From: Patescibacteria group bacterium
Lineage (GTDB): Bacteria; Patescibacteriota; Microgenomatia; UBA1400; PJMF01
Assembly: GCA_016861205.1 (NCBI GenBank)
Contig: BOKX01000001.1
Span: 520,539 to 584,538 of the forward strand
Length of the DNA stretch: 64,000 bases
Direction of reading: 5' to 3'
The notes under the pieces are model-generated. The model did not search any database and was not told where the DNA came from. It saw nothing but the letters and a program-made list of their open reading frames with translations. A program made the translations under genes and the position numbers. Below are positions 3,832 to 52,818 of this stretch, in pieces. Every line of letters starts with the position of its first letter. Within the stretch, counting starts at the first letter, position 1.

Positions 3832-4683
3832 TCAGACTCGCTTTCGCCACAGTTCGGCCACTAACTCTTCATGCCGACGATATCGAGCTGACAGGGATGG
3901 TTTTTGCTGCAGCTCCCAAACTTGGATGTACACTAACAGCCGATTCGTTGCTTGAACTAAGGCTTCTATCCAACCTGGCAAACCGTCCTTATAACCTTGT
4001 TCTTTAACACCTCGGCGCAACAACTCCATGCCGAACTTCCTGAATAAGGTTGTCAATTTCACTGGTGGAATACCTGACTCAAACAGCAAGCGCGCTTCGA
4101 TGGGTGTCCACTCTGCTGTTTTTAACAAACCTGAGACCACATTGCGATGAGTTAGATGCAAGAGTGGTTGTTGTAACTCGCTTACTTCGCCATCTATGTC
4201 TGCGTGTTCGTGTACCTCACCAGCCCACGTTTTGAGCTTCAGCCGATTGAACAATCGGACCACCCGATCATGCTGCCAGCCGCCATAGTACATTGGGTAT
4301 CCGTACAGTACATTGCTGCGTCGGACTGAGTAAGCAGTTGGGGCATGAGGATTGGTCTCTGATTGAGCTATGGCACTTCGCACTTCATCAGCTAATGCAG
4401 GGACTACTCGCTCATCCGCATCCACATAGAGCACCCAATCAGTTTTGGCTCGACGCAAGGCTTCGTTTCTAAGTTCCGAGAAGCCACCTTTGGTGGTCAC
4501 TACTCGCGCTCCAGCCCGCTTCGCCAACTCGGCAGTGGTATCACTCGAATCGTTGTCCACCACGATCACTTCATCACACCACTGCAAACTGTCGAGACAG
4601 TTGGCAATCATGTCAGCTTCATTCCGAGCTATCACTAACGCAGAAATTGTCGGTTGAGTTTTGGTTTCAGTCATCGTGTTCAT
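3832..4683 (-). CDS. Family 2 glycosyltransferase (GT2)
   Basis: The sequence ISALVIARNEADMIANCLDSL...VVDNDSSDTT is GT2-like. Its start overlaps the stop of the next gene in an ATGA coupling. Confidence 0.75.
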   Translation of the reverse strand: MNTMTETKTQPTISALVIARNEADMIANCLDSLQWCDEVIVVDNDSSDTTAELAKRAGARVVTTKGGFSELRNEALRRAKTDWVLYVDADERVVPALADEVRSAIAQSETNPHAPTAYSVRRSNVLYGYPMYYGGWQHDRVVRLFNRLKLKTWAGEVHEHADIDGEVSELQQPLLHLTHRNVVSGLLKTAEWTPIEARLLFESGIPPVKLTTLFRKFGMELLRRGVKEQGYKDGLPGWIEALVQATNRLLVYIQVWELQQKPSLSARYRRHEELVAELWRKRV

Positions 4684-5594
4684 AAAATAGTTTGCTTTCC
4701 TAGATTACCCACCACCACATCTACAATGGCCCGTCGCTCATAGTAACCACCTCGCCAAGCGAGTCTAACTGCCAAACTGATGACTGTTAGTTTGGTTCTC
4801 CAAGAACCATAGCGCCAGCAGAACCACAATCGATTCCGAGTCTGATAGTACAGATGCAGTGGCGAACCTGGACCCCCAGTTGAACCAGCATTCGTATGCC
4901 AAATTTTGGCAGTTGGACAGAGTTTGAGAGCAAAACCATGATATTTGACCCTCATGCTCCAATCCACATCTTCTAGATAGAGGAAGTATCGATCATCTAA
5001 GCCACCCACAATCTCCAAAACTTTTCTCGGCAGAAGGACACAGCAACCTGTCGCGAAATCCATGTCACTATCCGCAGCAAATTGACCACGATCCAGCTCA
5101 TCAATTCCTCGATGAAAAGCATCGAGGTTGCGCCAGTCTATACTCCCGCCACCGAACCAGAGGACTTTACCGAGATCTTTTGGCTGATAACTCGACTGAT
5201 GGAACTCTCTTCCAGCAGTAAAGTAAATCAACGGATTCACCATCCCAACTTCTGGATGATTAACCAAGTAGGCATGAAGTTCAGTCAAAAAATTCGGTGA
5301 CACAATCGTGTCATTATTCAGCAGTAAGACATAATCTGACTGGTACGTCTCCAGTGCATGTTTGACGAGTAAGTTATTTCCACCCGTAAAACCCAAGTTA
5401 GTTTCGCTGCGCAAAATTTCGAGCGGTAACTCCTGCAACTTAGGTGGCACCGTAAAAATTTCTTTTGAAGCGTTGTCCAAAACGATAATCTGGTACCGAA
5501 AGCGTTTAGCCTCAAGTCGCCGCAGCGAATCAAGACACTTGAGCGTGTCAGCTTCAGCATTGTAGTGGACGATCACGATACTAATGTGGTCCAT
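4680..5594 (-). CDS. Family 2 glycosyltransferase (rhamnosyl/galactosyl-transferase-like)
   Basis: MDHISIVIVHYNAEADTLKCLDSL...VLDNASKE shows the GT2 fold and the DxD region. Confidence 0.75.
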   Translation of the reverse strand: MDHISIVIVHYNAEADTLKCLDSLRRLEAKRFRYQIIVLDNASKEIFTVPPKLQELPLEILRSETNLGFTGGNNLLVKHALETYQSDYVLLLNNDTIVSPNFLTELHAYLVNHPEVGMVNPLIYFTAGREFHQSSYQPKDLGKVLWFGGGSIDWRNLDAFHRGIDELDRGQFAADSDMDFATGCCVLLPRKVLEIVGGLDDRYFLYLEDVDWSMRVKYHGFALKLCPTAKIWHTNAGSTGGPGSPLHLYYQTRNRLWFCWRYGSWRTKLTVISLAVRLAWRGGYYERRAIVDVVVGNLGKQTIL

Positions 5595-8640: not shown

Positions 8641-10149
8641 CTACTGTTTCTGCCAATAGCGAGCCACCAACTGGCCGACTTCGGCCCGCAGTTGAGACCA
8701 ACCGATAACCACAAACGTGACCCCGTAACTCAAACCGCTCACTACCCCACCAAACAACAACCAGCTATAACTGCGTGCCCACCAGTCTTGCCCAAGCCAA
8801 CCAACGACACTCATTACGACTCCAGCCACCAGTGGTCTCCAGACTTGTGCCCAAATCGCCACATCAACTTCTTTTTTCACTAAGTAGACCGGCAAAATGG
8901 ATGTTAAGGAAATGATTAATGATGCCCACGCTACTCCATTAAATCCATACCAATACACTAACAACGGTGTCAGCAACCACGTCAAACTTAGCCACATACC
9001 CATTAATTTAAGTGACTGTTTAATCTGACCAATTGCGTTTAACGTTGACACTAACGGTGATGAAATTGCGGCTGGGATGATACTCAGCGCAAACAAGGTA
9101 AAGCTGAGTAATGCTGGTTGCCACTTAGCATACCGTGGCACAATTTCTGTTAGCGGACCCATTAAAATAATTGTGCCAATAATCAACGGCACAATCAGCA
9201 AACTGATAAAGAACGTTGTTTTCTCAATTGCTCTTTTTAAAACATGCGGATGCCCTTGCAGTCGCGAGTAGGTTGGGAACATGACAGCAGATACATTGCC
9301 AACTGTTAAGTTATATGGATACATCGACCAATTTTTGGCCCAATTGATGTAGCCAAACTCCGTCAGTGGCAAGAACCACCCCATCACCAAGTAGAATAAG
9401 TTATCCTTCACTCGGGCCAATAGATCATAGAGTTGGAAACGAATTCCGAACCCAACCAGTTGCTTGGTCACTGCCCGATCCCAGCTCAGACCAATGGACC
9501 ACGGTTGCAGGAACCACATGGCAACCACACCCACCAACGACCGGGCCATCGTTGCATAGGCATAGGCAATTACCCCTGCCCCTCGCCAGGCCATTACCAC
9601 CAAAACTCCAAAGAAAGTCAGCTGCTCCAGAATCTGCGGCACAACAACCTTCGAAAACTCCAGTTTTCGTTCGAGCTTGATTGATGAGATGGTTTTCAAA
9701 CTTACTAACGGAAAAGAAATAGCCAAGCTTAGTAACACCCATACGCCGGCTGAACCCGTTTTACTACTCACTAAACCAGTGGCCACCACTCCTAAGCTCA
9801 ACGCCACTATCAGCCACGACAGGAGTTGTTGGATGGTGAAAGCGACTCGGTACTGTTTCAGTGTTGGCTCAGTTTTTTGTTGTACCAAAGTGGCCGCCAG
9901 ACCGACATCGGAGAAAAACACGAGCAACCCAATAATTTGAGTCACAAAACCATAAATGCCAAAGTCAGCCGGATCCAAAAAGGCACTCAATAAAATACCC
10001 GCCACAAAGCCAACGATTTGGAGAAACGCACCGCGAATAAAAAACGACACTACCCCAACCAAACTTTTTTGTTTAATGGCATTTACCTCTGGCGACTCAA
10101 GCACCTCATCTGTTTCTTGGGTAGTATCGGGAGCAGTGTAGTTAATCAT
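8641..10149 (-). CDS. wzx: Wzx-type oligosaccharide/polysaccharide flippase (MOP superfamily)
   Basis: The protein is about 500 aa with 12-14 transmembrane segments. Its N-terminus resembles polysaccharide biosynthesis proteins. The start was set to the ATG at 10147-10149, whose ATGATTAA sequence overlaps the stop of the upstream gene. Confidence 0.65.
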   Translation of the reverse strand: MINYTAPDTTQETDEVLESPEVNAIKQKSLVGVVSFFIRGAFLQIVGFVAGILLSAFLDPADFGIYGFVTQIIGLLVFFSDVGLAATLVQQKTEPTLKQYRVAFTIQQLLSWLIVALSLGVVATGLVSSKTGSAGVWVLLSLAISFPLVSLKTISSIKLERKLEFSKVVVPQILEQLTFFGVLVVMAWRGAGVIAYAYATMARSLVGVVAMWFLQPWSIGLSWDRAVTKQLVGFGIRFQLYDLLARVKDNLFYLVMGWFLPLTEFGYINWAKNWSMYPYNLTVGNVSAVMFPTYSRLQGHPHVLKRAIEKTTFFISLLIVPLIIGTIILMGPLTEIVPRYAKWQPALLSFTLFALSIIPAAISSPLVSTLNAIGQIKQSLKLMGMWLSLTWLLTPLLVYWYGFNGVAWASLIISLTSILPVYLVKKEVDVAIWAQVWRPLVAGVVMSVVGWLGQDWWARSYSWLLFGGVVSGLSYGVTFVVIGWSQLRAEVGQLVARYWQKQ

Positions 10150-29200: not shown

Positions 29201-30469
29201 ATGTCCAATTCTGAATCACTGTCCACCCATCTTATCGATCCAAACATGATCGGTGTTGTGCGTCGGGCTGAGCTCCATCATCCAGCAGATAAAACCGATG
29301 CTCGCCACTTAGGTCGATACTACAGACCCGGGCATAAAAACAATCCATTTCCCGATAGCCATACGATCGAGGTCGAGCACAAAGTCACCGACAGAGAGTA
29401 CTGGGTGGACTTTACGCATCAAGCTATTGCCGAACTTCACGCCGGTAACTACTCCAAGAAAGATCGTGTTTTAGTGGCCCGCTACACAAACAAGCTGCTG
29501 CAACTCTTAGATGAAATGGTACAAGATCCAAACTTCGGCAGCGAAGCTGTCTTGGTTGTTCGCCACCATGAAAACACCCACGTTTTGCAAGAGGTGAAGT
29601 GGCAGATTTCTACTTTGATTCAACACGATTTACCTAATCTTCAGTATGCTACCCGCACCATGCCAAGTAGCCGGCGAGAGCTCTGGTTTTGGCGATTGCT
29701 GTTGAGCGCTGAGATGGAGGTCCAGGCATTTGCTGAGCAAGGTCGCCACCTCAACACTCCCACAGCCAAACTGATGCTCTGGCTGACGCTGCGACGCGCA
29801 GTCGGGTTACTCCAGCTTCACCAGCCAGGCCAGGCGGATCCCTTAACCCTCCTGCGTCAGGATGCGTTTTCCGAAACAACCACAGATGATCAGCTCGCCT
29901 ATCGGCTGGCCGCCATGAAGTTGCTACTACCCGATAGTGACACAATTGTTAACCTCGTCACACTCGAGCCAGCTCAAACCAGAGTTGTTTTAGCCCAAGC
30001 TCTTCAAACATGGTTAGATCGACCTGAAGAGGCTTTGCGGTCCGTCCATCATTCGACTTTTGCCCAACAACAAAATGATCATCTAGCTGAGTTATGTCAG
30101 CAGGCTCGGACACGTTTAACTGAACTATGGCAAAGTACCGGGTGTTTATCTTTTAACGCATTTTTGGCGTTACCACCTGAGAAACAAGTCAGTAATTTGC
30201 TGCCTGAATCAATCGCCTTTAGTGTGGCGATACTCAAGGTTTTGTATGCACTGAGCACCCATAAAGCCACCACCAGAGAACAACTGCTCCAGGACACTAG
30301 CTTGAATGAGCGTGCACTGAGCCAGACATTAGCCGAGCTCATCGCCTCTGGCTACGTTATCCAGCGCGAAGCTGCTGATCAGCCAACTATCTACTCTGTC
30401 AAACAGTTCATCAAAGATCTGATTCTGGGCCCGGTCGACCGGGAGTGGCAGCGACGAGACCAGGGTTAG
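29201..30469 (+). CDS. Hypothetical protein (422 aa) with a C-terminal winged-helix-like domain
   Basis: The C-terminus reads ILKVLYALSTHKATTREQLLQDTSLNERALSQTLAELIASGYVIQRE, which resembles a MarR/ArsR-type winged HTH. Confidence 0.45.
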   Translation: MSNSESLSTHLIDPNMIGVVRRAELHHPADKTDARHLGRYYRPGHKNNPFPDSHTIEVEHKVTDREYWVDFTHQAIAELHAGNYSKKDRVLVARYTNKLLQLLDEMVQDPNFGSEAVLVVRHHENTHVLQEVKWQISTLIQHDLPNLQYATRTMPSSRRELWFWRLLLSAEMEVQAFAEQGRHLNTPTAKLMLWLTLRRAVGLLQLHQPGQADPLTLLRQDAFSETTTDDQLAYRLAAMKLLLPDSDTIVNLVTLEPAQTRVVLAQALQTWLDRPEEALRSVHHSTFAQQQNDHLAELCQQARTRLTELWQSTGCLSFNAFLALPPEKQVSNLLPESIAFSVAILKVLYALSTHKATTREQLLQDTSLNERALSQTLAELIASGYVIQREAADQPTIYSVKQFIKDLILGPVDREWQRRDQG

Positions 30470-30522
30470 GCTGCTGTCGCAGGCAACGAGCTAGAAATAC
30501 AAAACCAGCTGTGTTACCACTA

Positions 30523-30550
30523 AAAAACCGCCCTAAATGGCGGTTTTTTC
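30523..30550 (+). terminator. Rho-independent terminator
   Basis: The hairpin AAAAACCGCC-CTAAAT-GGCGGTTTTTT. Confidence 0.6.
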
Positions 30551-30644
30551 CTGACGTACTGTTGGTACAGTTTTTAGCGCCAACCCTCCGAATTGAAGTG
30601 AATATATCAAATCACTAGTCGAAAAGCAAGTTTTACTCTCGTCG

Positions 30645-30712
30645 TGGAGGTGAGGAGAATCGAACTCCCACGCCAACGTTCGGAGGGTTGGCTCTGTACC
30701 AACAGCACCCCC
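30645..30712 (-). tRNA. tRNA-like element, possibly a degenerate tRNA with a candidate CCG (Arg) anticodon
   Basis: The minus strand has a T-arm GGGAG-TTCGATT-CTCCT. A 7-bp acceptor GGGGGTG/CACCTCC contains one G-U pair. An anticodon-like hairpin CCAAC-(c)CTCCGAA(c)-GTTGG has U33 and A37. The D-arm is non-canonical and no CCA is encoded. Confidence 0.3.
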
Positions 30713-30766
30713 ACGATACCCAGAGTATGCTTGAGAAAGCTTGCACCAGGCTTGGATGCGTCATAT

Positions 30767-30795
30767 TTGATTTTAAGCCTATAATTTGCTATACT
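30767..30795 (+). promoter_or_regulatory. Promoter (TTGATT, 17-nt spacer, TATACT), paralogous to the promoter at 31288
   Basis: The hexamer spacing fits sigma70. The sequence aligns with the promoter at 31288-31316. Confidence 0.4.
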
Positions 30796-30850
30796 TGGCC
30801 TATTGATCCGACTGATTGAGGCAGTCAAATTGCTTGACTCCCCTCGCTCA

Positions 30851-30950
30851 GCCTGGAGCACCTTAACAAGTATCGGTTATTTCCTGGGGAACTGTCCCGC
30901 AGGTTGGGTTTAAGTATGGCTTGAACTCAGGCTGCGGGACGGTACTACAA
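30851..30950 (+). ncRNA. Structured 5' leader motif A of the ORF at 30991: an outer 9-bp stem encloses an 8-bp hairpin
   Basis: The outer stem pairs GTCCCGCAG (30894-30902) with CTGCGGGAC (30932-30940). The inner hairpin pairs GTTTAAGT with ACTTGAAC-like sequence. The same architecture with compensatory changes occurs at 31565-31617. Confidence 0.4.
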
Positions 30951-30990
30951 CGGTCGCCACAAAGCGACCACCGTAGCCCTGGAGGATGAG

Positions 30991-31218
30991 ATGGAACGCT
31001 TTAAGATAGCGATTGCATTTTTGTTTGTTGTCACATTGCTGGTTCTGGGAGCTTTAGTTCTGACTGATGGTCAGGGCCAAGAAATCGCACCAACTTTTCA
31101 AGTTGTACCAACGCCGCCTACCCAGGCGGCAACCCAGACAAGCATTGTCCCAACCCCAATGATTATTCCCACCCCCAATCTTGAAAAGGGGGTGGTGTTA
31201 AGCCCATCCCCCAAATAG
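30991..31218 (+). CDS. Small membrane-anchored or secreted Pro/Thr-rich protein (75 aa)
   Basis: A strong GGAGGA ribosome-binding site is followed by an N-terminal hydrophobic helix and a PT-rich tail. A terminator follows. Confidence 0.45.
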   Translation: MERFKIAIAFLFVVTLLVLGALVLTDGQGQEIAPTFQVVPTPPTQAATQTSIVPTPMIIPTPNLEKGVVLSPSPK

Positions 31219-31233
31219 CCCTACTTGTAATCT

Positions 31234-31265
31234 GGGCCGGCCTCAAAAGCCGGCCCACTTTTTTG
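31234..31265 (+). terminator. Rho-independent terminator
   Basis: GGGCCGGCC-TCAAAA-GCCGGCCC followed by ACTTTTTT. Confidence 0.6.
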
Positions 31266-31287
31266 CCTGGTTTTTAGTCCTATAACA

Positions 31288-31316
31288 TTGACTTTTGGCC
31301 TATAAAATGCTACAAT
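31288..31316 (+). promoter_or_regulatory. Promoter (TTGACT, 17-nt spacer, TACAAT)
   Basis: Near-consensus hexamers with a 17-nt spacer. It is paralogous to the promoter at 30767. Confidence 0.45.
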
Positions 31317-31500
31317 GTGATTCTTAATATATCGAATGCAAACAGCTCAGTGAGCTGGTCTGCAGAGTCCTGGAATTATTGATTCTGTGACTCTACAGAT
31401 CTCCAAGTCATCAGTTGAGCAGTTACATTTGCGTAACTCTCTCAACTTAGACTTTGAACTGTAGACAAGGGAACTTCTGGACACAGAAGGTTACAGGCTT

Positions 31501-31620
31501 GCCTGGACACCACTCTGCGACCGAAGGGCACCTTAACAGAGATACAGGTTATTCCTTACGGGAAACTGTTCCGCATGGTGAGTTTAAGTGTGACTTGAAC
31601 TTAGCCTGCGGAACAGTATA
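31501..31620 (+). ncRNA. Structured 5' leader motif B of the ORF at 31666, homologous to motif A
   Basis: The outer 11-bp stem pairs ACTGTTCCGCA (31565-31575) with TGCGGAACAGT (31607-31617). The inner hairpin pairs AGTTTAAGT with ACTTGAACT. Confidence 0.4.
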
Positions 31621-31665
31621 AAAGCTTGCCAATTTAGGCCAAGCTCTGTACCCCGCGAGGAGATC

Positions 31666-32511
31666 ATGTTCAAAAAACTCGTAATCCTTTTTGTTGTAGC
31701 CAACTTCGTGTTGGCCGTATCTGGGGGCGCAATCCCGGCACTCGCTCAGGATTCGTCTAATTGCAACCCTACCTACCATGAATCCGATGGCTCATGGACG
31801 TTTCCGGGCTGTACCCGGGCGGAAGTTGAAGAATGGTTGGGCGAAGAAATTGCTACCAACGATGCCACCGTCGAAGATGAAGAAAACAGCATCGCTCCCA
31901 CTTTGTTCGATGCCGACAGCTGTGCCCCCGAAATGGGGTGGTGCAGCTTTGACATTGGCACCAAAGAAGGGCAGATTACGTTGGTGTTTGGCGTTGATCT
32001 TAAATGGGGAACTGGCCTGCGTGCCCAACCGAGCAACCGTTGTGAAGTTGTCGTTTTGACCGAGGAAACTTGGTTCGAAAATTTTGGCTTGCGCGACGCC
32101 CGCTATGAGGTGTATCAGACTGCCGAAGGCAGCTGGTATGCTGGCTGGCTTCAAACGTTGGTTTCACAGCGTCTCGCTGAACAGGCAGGAAATTACACTT
32201 GCCCCAATGATGTCGGACACGTTAAGGTCTGGGATGCTGACACCGAGGAATTTATTTCCCTTGAAGACAGTACCTTGTGGCCCAATGATGATGCAACCAC
32301 GACCATTGTTGAGGGTGAATGGACTCCCACCGGCGAAGATGGCACTTTGTCTTTCGAGGCCGGGTGGTCCGTTATTGGGTGGGAAATTGCCATCGGTGAC
32401 ACTACCTATAGTGACTGCTATTTCGCGTCTGCGCCTGCTGCGGGTACGGTAACCTCTGGGGTCATTTGGCCCTATGAGGATGAAATCTCCGCAGCGGTCC
32501 CCTGCGAGTAA
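31666..32511 (+). CDS. Secreted acidic Cys-rich protein (281 aa), hypothetical
   Basis: Signal peptide MFKKLVILFVVANFVLAVSGGAIPALA. There are 10 Cys residues and the protein is rich in Asp, Glu, Thr and Trp. Confidence 0.5.
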   Translation: MFKKLVILFVVANFVLAVSGGAIPALAQDSSNCNPTYHESDGSWTFPGCTRAEVEEWLGEEIATNDATVEDEENSIAPTLFDADSCAPEMGWCSFDIGTKEGQITLVFGVDLKWGTGLRAQPSNRCEVVVLTEETWFENFGLRDARYEVYQTAEGSWYAGWLQTLVSQRLAEQAGNYTCPNDVGHVKVWDADTEEFISLEDSTLWPNDDATTTIVEGEWTPTGEDGTLSFEAGWSVIGWEIAIGDTTYSDCYFASAPAAGTVTSGVIWPYEDEISAAVPCE

Positions 32512-51675: not shown

Positions 51676-52113
51676 TTACTGAACTTGGCCACCAGCTTTA
51701 ATAATCAGCTCTTTGGCAGCTTGTGAGACTCGCAGACCTTGGACAGTCACAGCTCGACTCAAACTACCAGTAGCGATAATTTTAGCTTGTTTAAACTCAG
51801 GAGCAATCAGCTTTTCAAGCTTGAGTGTTTCCAGAGTTACGACTTCATTCTTCATTTTCTGCAGATCACTCAAGGTAATTTCAGCAGTCGGTCGAACCAC
51901 GTTGAAACGTGATTTACCCCGCATCATTGGCAAGCGCTTGATCAAAGGCAGTTGACCACCTTCAAACCAGTCGCGTGATTGACCATCTTTGCGGGCTTTG
52001 TGACCCTTGGTACCACGGCCAATGGTGTGAGCACCCTTGCCTGAACCATGACCACGACCTAAGCGTTTGCTGGCCTTAGTGGTAATGCTGGGTAGAGTGT
52101 GCAGTATAGACAT
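51676..52113 (-). CDS. rplO: 50S ribosomal protein L15
   Basis: KRLGRGHGSGKGAHTIGRGTKG. Confidence 0.9.
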   Translation of the reverse strand: MSILHTLPSITTKASKRLGRGHGSGKGAHTIGRGTKGHKARKDGQSRDWFEGGQLPLIKRLPMMRGKSRFNVVRPTAEITLSDLQKMKNEVVTLETLKLEKLIAPEFKQAKIIATGSLSRAVTVQGLRVSQAAKELIIKAGGQVQ

Positions 52114-52125
52114 ATAAATCCTGTA

Positions 52126-52818
52126 TTAAGCGGCTGCTTCTTTCTTTTCAGCTTTTGGCTTGGCAGGTTTGGCAGCTGGTTTTTTAGCTGGCTTGGCTGC
52201 TTTAGCGGCTGGTTGCTCAGCTTTTTTCTCGGCTGTGGCTGGCTTGGTTGTCTTAGCAGCTTTAGCTTGAGCTTGCAGCTCTTCGAGTTTTTTAGCTTCC
52301 TGGGCTTCCAGCTCAGCAATTGACTTGAGCTTAATGCCTTTGAGCTTGACGATCTTTTCGATTTGTTTCAAAGCTTCAAAGGTAGCATACACATTTGAGG
52401 CTTTATTGTTGGTCCCTAAAATCTTACTCGAGATGTCTCGAACACCAGCGGCTTCAACCACTGCTCGGACTGGACCACCCGCGATAACACCAGAACCTTT
52501 AGGAGCTGGCTTCAGCATTACTCTACCGGCACCTTGTTTAACACTGATAGAAAATGGAATGGTTGTCCCATCCAATGGCACGGTAATCATTTTTTTCTTA
52601 GCTCGTTTCACACCTTTACGCATAGCGGCCAGTACGTCTTTGGCTTTACCCAAACCGACACCGACTCGACCTTTGCGGTCACCAACCACCATTAGGATTG
52701 AGAAACCCATTTTGTTTCCACCCTTGGTTTTCTTGGACACCCGAGAAATTTGAATGACTTTCTCTTCAAACTCACTTGGGGTTTGGCTTTGAGCTAGGGT
52801 TTTAACATCGTGCGACAT
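52126..52818 (-). CDS. rpsE: 30S ribosomal protein S5 with a long Lys/Ala/Pro-rich C-terminal tail
   Basis: The S5 core is followed by the tail AKAAKTTKPATAEKKAEQPAAKAAKPAKKPAAKPAKPKAEKK. rplO lies directly adjacent, with no L30 gene between them. Confidence 0.9.
   Translation of the reverse strand: MSHDVKTLAQSQTPSEFEEKVIQISRVSKKTKGGNKMGFSILMVVGDRKGRVGVGLGKAKDVLAAMRKGVKRAKKKMITVPLDGTTIPFSISVKQGAGRVMLKPAPKGSGVIAGGPVRAVVEAAGVRDISSKILGTNNKASNVYATFEALKQIEKIVKLKGIKLKSIAELEAQEAKKLEELQAQAKAAKTTKPATAEKKAEQPAAKAAKPAKKPAAKPAKPKAEKKEAAA

Follow-up and report, generated by a model that had tools for sequence, protein, structure and literature searches.

A narrowly distributed RNA leader that most likely hides the ribosome-binding site of secreted-protein genes in a Patescibacteria group bacterium

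RESULTS

Two neighboring secreted-protein genes share a promoter and a folded 5' untranslated RNA

The window, a stretch of 64,000 nucleotides (nt) from a Patescibacteria group bacterium, contains two neighboring secreted-protein genes that are preceded by copies of one promoter and one folded 5' untranslated RNA (units A and B; Table 1). All sequence features that an initial annotation had listed for this region were found in their places. Both open reading frames (ORFs) begin with hydrophobic signal-type N termini, in agreement with the signal peptides assigned to them, and the strong ribosome-binding sites noted upstream are present as GGAGGA-N4-ATG (positions 30981 to 30993) in unit A and as GAGGAG-N3-ATG (31657 to 31668) in unit B. 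The predicted structure of the 281-amino-acid (aa) protein (pLDDT of 83.6) has no significant fold match in the PDB, and word-indexed homologue searches with the 281-aa, 422-aa, and 75-aa proteins retrieved the same species only.

The two promoters share a string that occurs at just these two sites in the 64-kb window (0.01 expected). The −10 box of both is preceded by TG, and the TTGACT-17-TACAAT part of promoter B spans positions 31288 to 31316. Units A and B are identical at 22 of 29 promoter positions and at 73 of 93 positions of the leader core; between promoter and core, 53 of 212 positions match, which makes this interval effectively unalignable. The similarity of the two units is therefore not that of a recent wholesale duplication, and the duplication of promoter DNA that the initial annotation had raised as the competing account was not borne out. 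Strain L010 has an identical promoter A (100%), and strain L028 is 95% identical over promoter and leader together. Promoters orthologous to promoter B are carried by two distant relatives, L037 and L038.

Transcription starts and transcript ends are predictions from sequence. Measured from the predicted promoters, the 5' untranslated region (UTR) is ~190 nt long in unit A and about 340 to 350 nt long in unit B. The long 5' UTR of unit B contains an upstream hairpin, H1, and both strands of its stem are kept in the distant relative L037 around a different interior. The rho-independent terminator annotated after the first ORF (31234 to 31265) is present, one nucleotide longer at either end, and is reused behind other cassettes. 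An enrichment of the GSCCTATWR box was dropped as a candidate feature, with four occurrences in the window versus two expected.

In strain comparisons, identity stops exactly at the Shine-Dalgarno (SD) sequence or start codon and resumes at the terminator (100%, 69%, and 90%). ORF A is hypervariable between strains, with 69% DNA identity versus 100% in the leader. Several different ORFs are flanked by the same terminator and promoter types, and at least five assemblies have a contig break just upstream. The promoter-leader-ORF-terminator unit is a reused cassette, terminator included. The idea of an always-adjacent regulator was dropped, as the protein of 123 aa that precedes unit A in L028 bears no relation to the C terminus of the 422-aa protein.

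TABLE 1 Positions of the features of units A and B in the window
Feature	Positions	Strand	Description
Promoter A	30767-30795	+	TTGATT, 17-nt spacer containing GCCTATAA, TGcTATACT
Invariant 5' motif, leader A	30858-30867	+	GCACCUUAAC; anti-SD-like (CACCUU), purines GGA just before
P1 5' strand, leader A	30882-30889	+	UCCU (anti-SD) and GGGG; predicted from folds
P2, leader A	30891-30943	+	12 bp, GxG 1x1 internal loop, 12 bp, loop AUG; 5 G-U pairs
P3, leader A	30952-30969	+	Hairpin GGUCGC / GCGACC
P1 3' strand, leader A	30977-30990	+	CCCU, GG, AGGA; takes in SD GGAGGA (30981-30986) and 4-nt spacer
ORF A	30991-31218	+	75 aa; N-terminal transmembrane or signal segment, Pro/Thr-rich tail
Intrinsic terminator	31233-31266	+	GGGCCGGCC-loop-GGCCGGCCC (to 31257), then T-run
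Promoter B	31279-31316	+	CCTATAA box (31279-31285), TTGACT, 17-nt spacer with GCCTATAA, TGcTACAAT
Upstream hairpin H1	31360-31398	+	Long 5' UTR of unit B; CUGCAGAGU ... ACUCUACAG
Invariant 5' motif, leader B	31528-31537	+	GCACCUUAAC
P1 5' strand, leader B	31553-31562	+	UCCU, UA, CGGG
P2, leader B	31565-31617	+	11 bp, irregular UGG/GCC junction retaining GxG mismatch, 11 bp, loop GUG
P3, leader B	31623-31645	+	AGCUUGCC / GG(C)CAAGCU
P1 3' strand, leader B	31652-31665	+	CCCG, CG, AGGA; takes in SD GAGGAG (31657-31662) and spacer
ORF B	31666-32511	+	281-aa Sec-signal protein, uncharacterized two-domain secreted family

The leader is predicted to fold into a three-way junction

The leaders occupy positions 30856 to 30990 (A) and 31526 to 31665 (B), and each ends in the strong SD sequence that is followed by the signal-peptide ORF. 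The homologous cores that had been described within them (30856 to 30946 and 31526 to 31620) are the only two copies in the 64-kb window, as found with a covariance model, R1, run without filters (99 and 110 bits, versus 13 bits for the next-best match). The folding check suggested for both leaders showed that they fold far better than shuffled sequence (z of −5.6 and −6.5). The predicted folds describe a three-way junction of helices P1, P2, and P3, in which the closing helix P1 pairs an anti-SD sequence with the SD sequence. The most conserved element of the leader is a single-stranded anti-SD-like 9-mer, GCACCUUAA, which we take to resemble the 3' tail of 16S rRNA; within the window, its exact sequence is confined to the two leaders.

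The outer stems were recovered as proposed, with GTCCCGCAG/CTGCGGGAC in copy A and ACTGTTCCGCA/TGCGGAACAGT in copy B, and with a C-G to U-A double change at alignment columns 47/89; the inner hairpin is likewise conserved and contains the U-G wobble (columns 62/74). In all leaders, P2 has two to five G-U pairs and folds better on the sense strand than on the antisense strand by 8 to 19 kcal/mol (−39.1 versus −22.4 kcal/mol in leader A), which argues that it works as a sense-strand RNA. Model R1 gives 99 to 110 bits on the plus strand versus 31 to 35 bits on the minus strand.

Paired positions covary within the species

Four leader variants beyond the window copies A and B were recovered from related strains. 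The resulting alignment, which was made by hand and N-padded for MAFFT, contains six distinct variants from one species, about four of them independent. Across these six variants, the 38 proposed pairs are 99.5% canonical and six pairs show double-sided changes, with at least one each in P1, outer P2, inner P2, and P3. The covariation first seen as a T-to-C change matched by an A-to-G change thus extends to six double-change pairs with more sequences. Slid-register controls gave zero or one double-change pair, and the observed covariation score was reached by none of 500 shuffles. P1 is 100% paired among the variants, with GU, AU, and CG variants at columns 35/142, and its sole natural polymorphism is a G-to-A change in strain L023 that replaces a G-U pair by an A-U pair. 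Double compensatory changes occur at three pairs of P3, a count inflated by an alignment that was hand-fitted to the structure.

Distant relatives keep the shape of the leader with unrelated sequence

An exhaustive HMMER search for protein homologues led to L037 and L038, distant syntenic relatives whose downstream protein is only ~35% identical. Together with the four same-species variants, these two are the further instances recovered, and the leader is narrowly distributed, with three related lineages found. The 9-mer GCACCUUAA occurs once per 10- to 12-kb locus in L037 and L038, at −136 and −154, and lies 133 to 154 nt 5' of the start codon in all three lineages. In each of them it is followed 22 to 28 nt downstream by a P2 hairpin of 21 to 24 bp (24, 21, and 24 bp).

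The P2 sequences of L037 and L038 are unrelated to those of the window species, as are the junction strands and the 22- to 28-nt linker between the motif and P2, and one GxG mismatch is always kept. The hairpins are built as 14 bp-GxG-7 bp and 16 bp-GxG-8 bp in L037 and L038 versus 12 bp-GxG-12 bp in leader A, and they have z scores of −10 and −7 in the two relatives. In a structural alignment of P2 across lineages, 139 of 140 pairs are canonical at ~25% identity between lineages (counted in Python), a number again inflated by fitting to the structure by hand. What stays constant across lineages is confined to the 9-mer, the GxG mismatch, and the SD sequence; the junctions and the linker vary even within the species. 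The leader RNA is kept by selection in the distant relatives.

The SD sequence is predicted to be sequestered in all three lineages

Pairing of the SD sequence with an anti-SD sequence is common to the folds of the three lineages, the anti-SD being either the motif itself or a nearby UCCU. In the minimum free energy (MFE) and centroid folds of leaders A, A', B, and C, UCCU pairs with AGGA, and in those of L037 and L038, GAGC.CCUU or GCACCUU pairs with the SD region. The partner of the SD sequence thus differs by lineage, with the proximal UCCU used in the window species versus the 5' motif in L037 and L038, and P1 as drawn is therefore not one homologous helix.

The predicted probability that the SD sequence is unpaired is 0.05 to 0.3 for the leaders overall, with 0.2 to 0.3 in leader A and about 0.05 to 0.07 in leader B. 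Compared with 25 window genes taken as a crude background (median, 0.32), sequestration in leader A is unexceptional and only unit B stands out, its SD sequence being the second most sequestered of the 25. Freeing the SD sequence is predicted to cost 3.4 kcal/mol in leader A and 4.2 kcal/mol in leader B, within a range of 3.4 to 9 kcal/mol. In A and B, folds constrained to keep the SD sequence open place the anti-SD in an alternative hairpin, P0. The 5' strand of P0 is invariant, which leaves no possibility of covariation, and a G-to-A change in strain L028 weakens this hairpin. Between 15 and 45°C, the predicted accessibility of the SD sequence is almost flat, with shifts of about 0.1 or less, for example from 0.15 to 0.26 in A and from 0.03 to 0.08 in B.

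The leader matches no known RNA family

In agreement with the initial view that the leader belongs to no known riboswitch class, Rfam 15 (4227 models) gave no match at gathering thresholds in the window, in strains L028 and L030, or in L037 and L038. At an E value of ≤10, the leaders matched only the miRNA-hairpin model mir-9193, by chance (25 bits versus a threshold of 55). No described equivalent of the leader was found in the literature. Among the roles suggested initially (a cis-regulatory leader, an attenuator, or a protein-binding element), the conserved RNA structure that they imply is upheld by the covariation and by the shape of P2, but attenuation is not, since there is no internal terminator: the sense strand has no terminator-like site from either promoter to its start codon, and on reading of the sequence neither P2 nor P3 has a U-run behind it. 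A leader peptide was rejected, as was an antisense promoter, of which a lone match (31642 to 31615) is absent from unit A and within chance expectation.

Genome contigs scanned with the inner-stem pattern GTTTAAGTNTGNCTTGAACT gave eight chance matches, and viral contigs gave three. Metagenome contigs scanned with GCACCTTAAC..GGTTA..AACTGT gave 10 matches, none with the leader stems; at least 7 of these 10 encode a conserved ...GTLTEWL/KWL... peptide, which seems to belong to lipoyl-attachment proteins, and the six loci scored with model R1 gave no match. The genome and metagenome scans are weak negatives, as their patterns demanded P2 sequence, GGTTA, and AACTGT, which are absent from the distant relatives. 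Phage and plasmid collections contained no BLAST match to unit A.

DISCUSSION

The leader described here is a real, narrowly distributed regulatory leader that most likely hides the ribosome-binding site. From its elements, their conservation and covariation, the sense-strand bias, and the predicted pairing of the SD sequence, we infer translational control. The account that we favor, with moderate confidence, is that the leader acts in cis on translation by sequestering the SD sequence and is reused in a cassette around fast-evolving secreted proteins. Each unit would be transcribed from a sigma-70-type promoter into a long 5' UTR, the last ~135 nt of which would act as the translational-control leader. 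The anti-SD would be UCCU together with GGGG or CGGG just 5' of P2 in the window species and the invariant 5' motif GCACCUU itself in the distant relatives. The ribosome-binding site would be hidden by default, and expression would need the anti-SD to be removed. Either the anti-SD could be captured in the alternative hairpin P0, where a purine-rich stretch preceding the motif is the partner, or the long P2 could be cut or bound, and the anti-SD on its 5' side would lose its link to the SD sequence. As the trigger of this opening, we guess at cleavage by RNase III or at a protein that binds the long helix.

The leader represents a new family within a known kind of element, the SD-sequestering translational leaders. 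In these leaders, which include the expression platforms of translational riboswitches and type I toxin mRNAs with long-range anti-SD pairing such as hok and aapA1, a pyrimidine-rich anti-SD upstream likewise pairs with the SD sequence across a structured domain; an alternative local hairpin can likewise hold the anti-SD, and the states are a few kilocalories per mole apart. In contrast to SD-sequestering riboswitches and type I toxin mRNAs, no conserved ligand pocket, antisense RNA, or antisense promoter is seen here, and the products are secreted proteins of 75, 281, and 422 aa, unlike the hydrophobic type I toxins of ~60 aa or less.

Of the other explanations, the one that survives best, although we consider it unlikely, is that the leader is a processing or stability element, with P2 as a site for RNase III or another double-stranded RNA nuclease or as a 5' stabilizer against RNase Y- or RNase J-type decay. 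Cutting of P2 would then set the half-life of the mRNA or activate translation irreversibly, with no reversible switch. RNase III-processed 5' leaders are found in lambda N and in E. coli adhE, pnp, and rnc; in these, too, a helix with an internal mismatch, some two turns long, separates an inhibitory strand on its upstream side from the ribosome-binding site. P2 has the ~20 bp or more of double-stranded RNA that is characteristic of such leaders. Its 21 to 24 bp with a single GxG mismatch in three lineages, whatever the sequence, fit recognition of shape and not a ligand pocket, and a cut would uncouple the anti-SD on its 5' side from the SD sequence on its 3' side. However, the position of the mismatch varies (12, 14, or 16 bp from the base), the invariant 9-mer is left unexplained, and no RNase III signature was found in the window or the loci scanned, which cover a small part of the ~1.15-Mb genome. 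These known leaders have no sequence relation to the one described here, in which cleavage is hypothetical.

Gram-positive 5' mRNA stabilizers, such as the aprE leader, ermC, and the cryIIIA STAB-SD, offer a second comparison. Here, as in these stabilizers of highly expressed genes, a long structured 5' UTR precedes secreted-protein genes and a purine-rich SD-like stretch (here GGAG, AGGG, or AAGGAG) lies far upstream of the real SD sequence. RNase Y is also common to both, its gene lying 2 kb from the leader in L038, which suggests Firmicute-type 5'-end-dependent decay in the group. Unlike in these stabilizers, the conserved element here is anti-SD-like and the structure lies 55 to 200 nt from the predicted 5' end. 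Processing of P2 overlaps with sequestration of the SD sequence and does not exclude it.

A metabolite or ion riboswitch, with the three-way junction and the conserved 5' motif as its aptamer, is improbable. Many riboswitches are likewise three-way junctions with the SD sequence in the helix that closes them, the single-stranded 9-mer is invariant, and the predicted ON and OFF conformers lie within 3 to 5 kcal/mol of one another. Against this, the junction strands J12, J23, and J31 vary within the species (ACUACAAC, AUAAA, and AACCAUGAACG) and are unrelated in L037 and L038; the downstream genes encode secreted proteins without an assigned function, which are neither transporters nor enzymes; and the distribution is very narrow, with no Rfam riboswitch scoring even at an E value of ≤10.

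An RNA thermometer, in which warming would melt P1 and release the SD sequence, is less credible again. The SD sequence is indeed held by a short (4 + 4 bp) helix with G-U pairs, but the predicted shift in its accessibility between 15 and 45°C is small, and an elaborate P2, P3, or 340-nt UTR would not be needed. Sequence of the fourU or ROSE type is absent, as is a match to the corresponding Rfam models at an E value of ≤10, and pairing of the SD sequence with UCCU or CACCUU in the closing helix of a three-way junction is unlike the simple hairpin of these thermometers, whose SD sequence is held by a UUUU or U(U/C)GCU stretch.

Equally remote is an explanation at the DNA level, in which the blocks would be homology arms or recombination sites for cassette swaps, or neutral leftovers of duplication, without a selected RNA structure: identity boundaries at the SD sequence or start codon and at the terminator, the shared terminator and promoter types, and the contig breaks upstream all fit it, but every helix carries compensatory double substitutions, the relatives have swapped P2 for unrelated sequence of the same shape, its G-U pairs leave the hairpin much less stable when formed by the opposite strand or by DNA, and the flanks of A and B are unalignable. 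Integron cassettes with attC sites are likewise modular, with variable ORFs that are replaced between strains and lie between hairpin-forming conserved blocks. Unlike attC, which lies 3' of the ORF in a promoterless cassette, the hairpin here lies 5' of the ORF and acts in the sense RNA, and the cassettes come with a promoter and a terminator of their own. Neither an integrase domain nor R''/R' attC core sites (RYYYAAC/GTTRRRY) were found among the neighboring proteins scanned and in the sequence. Cassette exchange may well use the conserved blocks, and such exchange would still leave the covariation unexplained.

With the SD-sequestering leader as the preferred reading, the promoter, leader, and shared terminator would form a constant scaffold around fast-diverging ORFs. 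The unit would be ancestral to the gene for the secreted two-domain protein (unit B in the window, and single copies in L037 and L038), and in the window species it would have been copied onto a small membrane or secreted ORF (unit A). More speculatively, and in our judgment doubtful, a factor acting in trans, be it an RNA, a protein, or a nuclease of the RNase III type, might read GCACCUUAA, the two-turn helix with its GxG mismatch, or both, and unlock translation of the fast-evolving surface or secreted proteins, with the scaffold doubling as a portable cassette through which strains swap these ORFs while keeping them under common control; this would be an undescribed post-transcriptional system of small, CPR-like genomes.

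Ultra-small uncultivated bacteria have few classical regulators, and little is known of how their genes are regulated. The leader is a concrete example of candidate post-transcriptional control in such a bacterium, with an anti-SD mimic shared by hypervariable secreted-protein genes, and its cassette offers an entry point for studying the expression and exchange of host-facing proteins.

Two promoter and leader units

Units A and B each comprise a promoter, a structured leader, a strong ribosome-binding site and an ORF with a hydrophobic N terminus, and a terminator follows ORF A, all as the initial annotation had described (see table). The two promoters, claimed there to be homologous, are identical at 22 of 29 positions and share the string TTGAYTTTNNGCCTATAANNTGCTA, which has no third site in the window (0.01 expected). 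The leader cores, also described as homologous, are identical at 73 of 93 positions and fold far more stably than shuffled sequence (z of −5.6 and −6.5). In an unfiltered search of the 64-kb window, covariance model R1, built on the core, scored the two copies strongly, at 99 and 110 bits, but retrieved no further copy, the next best match reaching 13 bits. A recent wholesale duplication of the region was rejected: the stretch from promoter to core (60 nt in A, 210 nt in B) is effectively unalignable, with 53 of 212 positions identical.

The statement that this is not a known riboswitch class agrees with Rfam 15, to which neither the window nor any of four related loci gave a match at gathering thresholds. 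At a permissive E of ≤10, the leaders matched a chance hairpin model alone (positions 30400 to 31800). Phage and plasmid collections contained nothing resembling the unit.

Positions of features in the window and related loci
Feature	Description	Position
Promoter A	TTGATT-17-TATACT, TG extended −10; promoter scan	30767-30795
Promoter B	TTGACT-17-TACAAT, TG extended −10; promoter scan	31288-31316
SD, unit A	GGAGGA-N4-ATG	30981-30993
SD, unit B	GAGGAG-N3-ATG	31657-31668
ORF A	75 aa, hydrophobic N terminus	30991-31218
ORF A copies		L010:7791-8018; L028:4628-4846
ORF B	281 aa, hydrophobic N terminus, classical ...ALA/QD signal peptide	31666-32511
Terminator	31233-31257 without T-run	31233-31266
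Terminator copies		L010:8033-8065 and 9673-9705; L028:4864-4896
Leader A'	variant of leader A	L028:4493-4630
Leader C	third leader	L010:8245-8392
422-aa gene	behind leader C	L010:8390-9658
H1	hairpin, distal 5' UTR of unit B	31360-31398
H1 counterpart		L037:4691-4741
CCTATAA/CCCATAA box		31279-31285; L037 ~4611-4617; L038 ~4947-4953; L010 ~9718-9724; L028 ~4933-4939
332-aa gene cassette		L010:10010-10190
Replacement segment	1.35 kb	L028:3045-4403
tRNA-like element	71 nt, − strand	30642-30712
Inverted partial copy	5' half of tRNA-like element, + strand	30556-30592
Contig ends/starts	public assemblies	~30544-30563
Bidirectional terminator		30522-30549
S5 and L15 genes	− strand	51676-52818

Covariation among leader variants

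Same-species strain loci were obtained by exact-protein look-ups in public assemblies. Loci L028 and L029 carry A', the L023 leader differs by a single base, and leader C lies downstream in L010, where it precedes a different signal-peptide gene; the 422-aa product shares the first domain of the window's 281-aa protein. The covariation sample consisted of six distinct leader sequences, hand-aligned by structure and kept unchanged as alignment A6. Its 38 proposed pairs are 99.5% canonical and 6 of them change on both sides, at least one in every helix, counts to be read with the caveat that the sequences are few and mutually related and that the short hairpin P3 is hand-aligned. The double changes are at columns 35/142 in the closing helix P1 (GU/AU/CG), 47/89 and 63/73 in the outer and inner parts of the long hairpin P2 (CG/UA and AU/GC), and 108/126 (GC/CG), 109/125 (UA/CG/UG) and 110/124 (CG/UA) in P3. 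The pair at 47/89 is the outer-stem compensatory change spotted initially. When the 3' partners were slid by 1 to 3 columns, 0 to 1 double-change pairs resulted and pairing was 33 to 51%, and 0 of 500 shuffles reached the observed covariation score.

Across all three lineages (the distant relatives described below included), each P2 contains 2 to 5 G-U pairs, and its sense fold beats the antisense fold by 8 to 19 kcal/mol in all six sequences compared. R1 likewise scores 31 to 35 bits on the minus strand against 99 to 110 on the plus strand. This points to a leader that acts as sense-strand RNA, not as a DNA palindrome.

Leaders in distant relatives

The 281-aa protein appeared orphan-like in a word-indexed search, and an exhaustive HMMER search retrieved 159 representative homologues with approximately 30 to 50% identity over matched stretches. 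They form an uncharacterised two-domain secreted family (159 representative clusters) with beta-rich domains and conserved motifs such as DIGV..GQ.G.VFG, C.LVVL, GWYENL, DGRYEVY and QRA.EQ..Y.CP; a confident AF2 model of the 281-aa protein (pLDDT 83.6) matches no PDB fold significantly. Two of the homologues sit in loci syntenic with the window: the gene order 281 aa, 77 aa, GT2, 1133 aa and LTD of the window is paralleled in L037 by 270 aa, 77 aa, GT2, ~1100 aa and LTD, and in L038/L039 by 214 aa, GT2 and 1092 aa.

In L037 and L038 the upstream intergenic region spans ~460 to 490 nt, with a UTR of 340 to 400 nt and the same type of promoter (CCTATAA-like box, TTGAC(T/A), 17 nt, TATACT or TACACT). 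Each contains one exact copy of the invariant 5' motif GCACCUUAA, at −136 and −154 relative to the start codon, compared with −133 in A, −138 in B and −143 in C; in the window, the motif is confined to the two leaders. A long hairpin 22 to 28 nt 3' of the motif has the shape of P2 and an unrelated sequence: 14 bp, GxG, 7 bp and a 3-nt loop in L037 (z of −10) and 16 bp, GxG, 8 bp and a 4-nt loop in L038 (z of −7), against 12 bp, GxG, 12 bp and a 3-nt loop in unit A (z not computed for P2 alone). In a structure-anchored alignment, 139 of 140 P2 pairs are canonical at a between-lineage identity of roughly 18 to 31%, and the internal-loop GxG is present in 6 of 6 sequences. Because this alignment was fitted to structure, the count must be read accordingly, and the real evidence is that each lineage has, at the corresponding position, its own independent two-turn hairpin with near-perfect pairing.

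H1 has the stem CUGCAGAGU/ACUCUACAG with a conserved CxA mismatch; L037 keeps both strands and differs in the interior. The ~340-nt UTR of unit B may contain additional functional structure. Only one unit is present in L037 and in L038, and the 75-aa gene is absent there, which makes unit B ancestral; unit A arose at the species level as a copy of unit B's regulatory region.

Double changes in all helices, a P2 of the same shape in relatives and the sense-strand bias bear out the conserved cis-leader RNA structure proposed initially. The leader is very probably an RNA structure of the sense strand, kept by selection within the 5' UTR and belonging to an undescribed, narrowly distributed family.

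Regulatory blocks and variable ORFs

A near-identical terminator, GGGCCGGCCTCAAAA(A/G)CCGGCCC plus T-run, follows several unrelated ORFs and is succeeded by the same promoter type. Promoter A and leader A are 100% identical between the window and L010 or L030 to L032, and the 75-aa ORF falls to 69% (terminator ~90% in L010). Across its three copies, this ORF, which encodes a transmembrane segment and a Pro/Thr-rich tail, has a DNA identity of 64 to 69% between flanks of 95 to 100% (leader) and 68 to 90% (terminator), and is either hypervariable or an exchanged cassette. Constant promoter, leader and terminator around a changing ORF mean that regulatory blocks frame rapidly changing ORFs, and these blocks probably also serve as homology for exchange. 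That role cannot alone explain the leader similarity, since exchange homology by itself cannot yield compensatory changes.

In L028, 290 bp upstream of promoter A are swapped for 1.35 kb, with the breakpoint directly before the −35. This segment replaces the tRNA-like region and contains several very small membrane-type ORFs (minus strand); a 123-aa protein encoded there has no Pfam match. The tRNA-like element, missing from L028, aligns with the Rfam tmRNA model at its two ends, with 26 nt replacing the 328-nt interior (27 bits; E of 8.8e-9 for a search of 1.4 kb). Its acceptor stem is 7 bp long and includes G3:U70, its T-loop reads UUCGAUU and its 3' end is ACGA instead of ACCA; its inverted partial copy lies 86 to 123 nt off. 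ARAGORN does not call it, and the 64-kb window has no tRNA genes. The element may be what is left of a tmRNA or tRNA gene at a hot spot for integration. Just past the bidirectional terminator, contigs end or start in at least five independent public assemblies, which suggests an assembly-graph branch point at the onset of strain heterogeneity.

Of six promoters of this type, five have a CCTATAA (or CCCATAA) box 2 to 3 nt 5' of the −35 hexamer, and the spacers of both A and B contain a related GCCTATAA. The box, which shows no enrichment across the window, could represent an operator, an overlapping −10 or an element resembling UP. The next cassette in L010, a 332-aa gene, has its own ~400-nt leader with a degenerate motif, GCUCUUUAAC, and a long hairpin whose outer stem (CCCGCA/UGCGGG) encloses the annotated ATG; a second UCCUUAACAGG directly precedes a better SD-ATG at ~10186. 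This leader is possibly a diverged relative of the family, and the annotated start may be wrong. Elsewhere in the window, the S5 gene is followed directly by L15 with no L30 gene between, and orphan and glycosyltransferase genes are numerous, which suggests a candidate-phyla-radiation (Patescibacteria-like) bacterium.

Predicted sequestration of the SD

MFE and centroid folds of A, A', B and C present a three-way junction, with a predicted closing helix of UCCU:AGGA plus GGGG:CCCU (or CGGG:CCCG), so that the SD lies within this helix. The predicted folds of L037 and L038 lack the proximal UCCU partner or use it otherwise; there, the partner of the SD region is the invariant motif, whose CACCUU is itself anti-SD-like (pairings: GAGC.CCUU with GAGG..GCUC in L037, GCACCUU with GGAGGUGC in L038). 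The constant theme of these models is an anti-SD 5' of P2 paired with an SD 3' of P3. The predicted unpaired probability of the SD is 0.05 to 0.3, and the predicted cost of forcing it open is 3.4 to 5.3 kcal/mol for leaders of the window species, 4.5 for L038 and 9.0 for L037. When the SD of A or B is forced open in the model, the anti-SD shifts into an alternative 5' hairpin (P0) with the purine-rich GGAG or AGGG directly before the motif; an invariant 5' strand puts P0 beyond the reach of covariation. Against 25 window genes, a crude background with a median of 0.32, SD sequestration in unit B is the second strongest and that in unit A is unremarkable. Taken as modeled, these folds make it reasonably probable that the leader works through SD sequestration.

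Candidate triggers

Three features are conserved, namely the 9-mer, a two-turn helix with a single GxG, and pairing of the SD. This set is consistent with a leader that a protein or nuclease recognises, or with one that is purely a structural brake on translation. Among the triggers, action of a nuclease or protein on P2 or on the motif ranks first: as in RNase III-activated leaders, a cut in the helix would part the anti-SD from the SD, cleavage here being a proposal. A signature search of the window and related loci, a small part of the genome, found no RNase III signature; an RNase Y gene lies near the leader in L038. A constitutive brake or stabiliser ranks second. A riboswitch ranks third; neither the junctions nor the linker are conserved in sequence, and this speaks against a metabolite pocket. 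A thermometer ranks last, and between 15 and 45°C the predicted accessibility of the SD hardly changes. The transcription attenuator offered as one option by the initial annotation is excluded, with a terminator-like site in neither leader.

The leader thus represents a new family of a known kind of system, limited in breadth and with a mechanism so far not new, and offers a clean example on which post-transcriptional control can be tested in a group about which little is understood.
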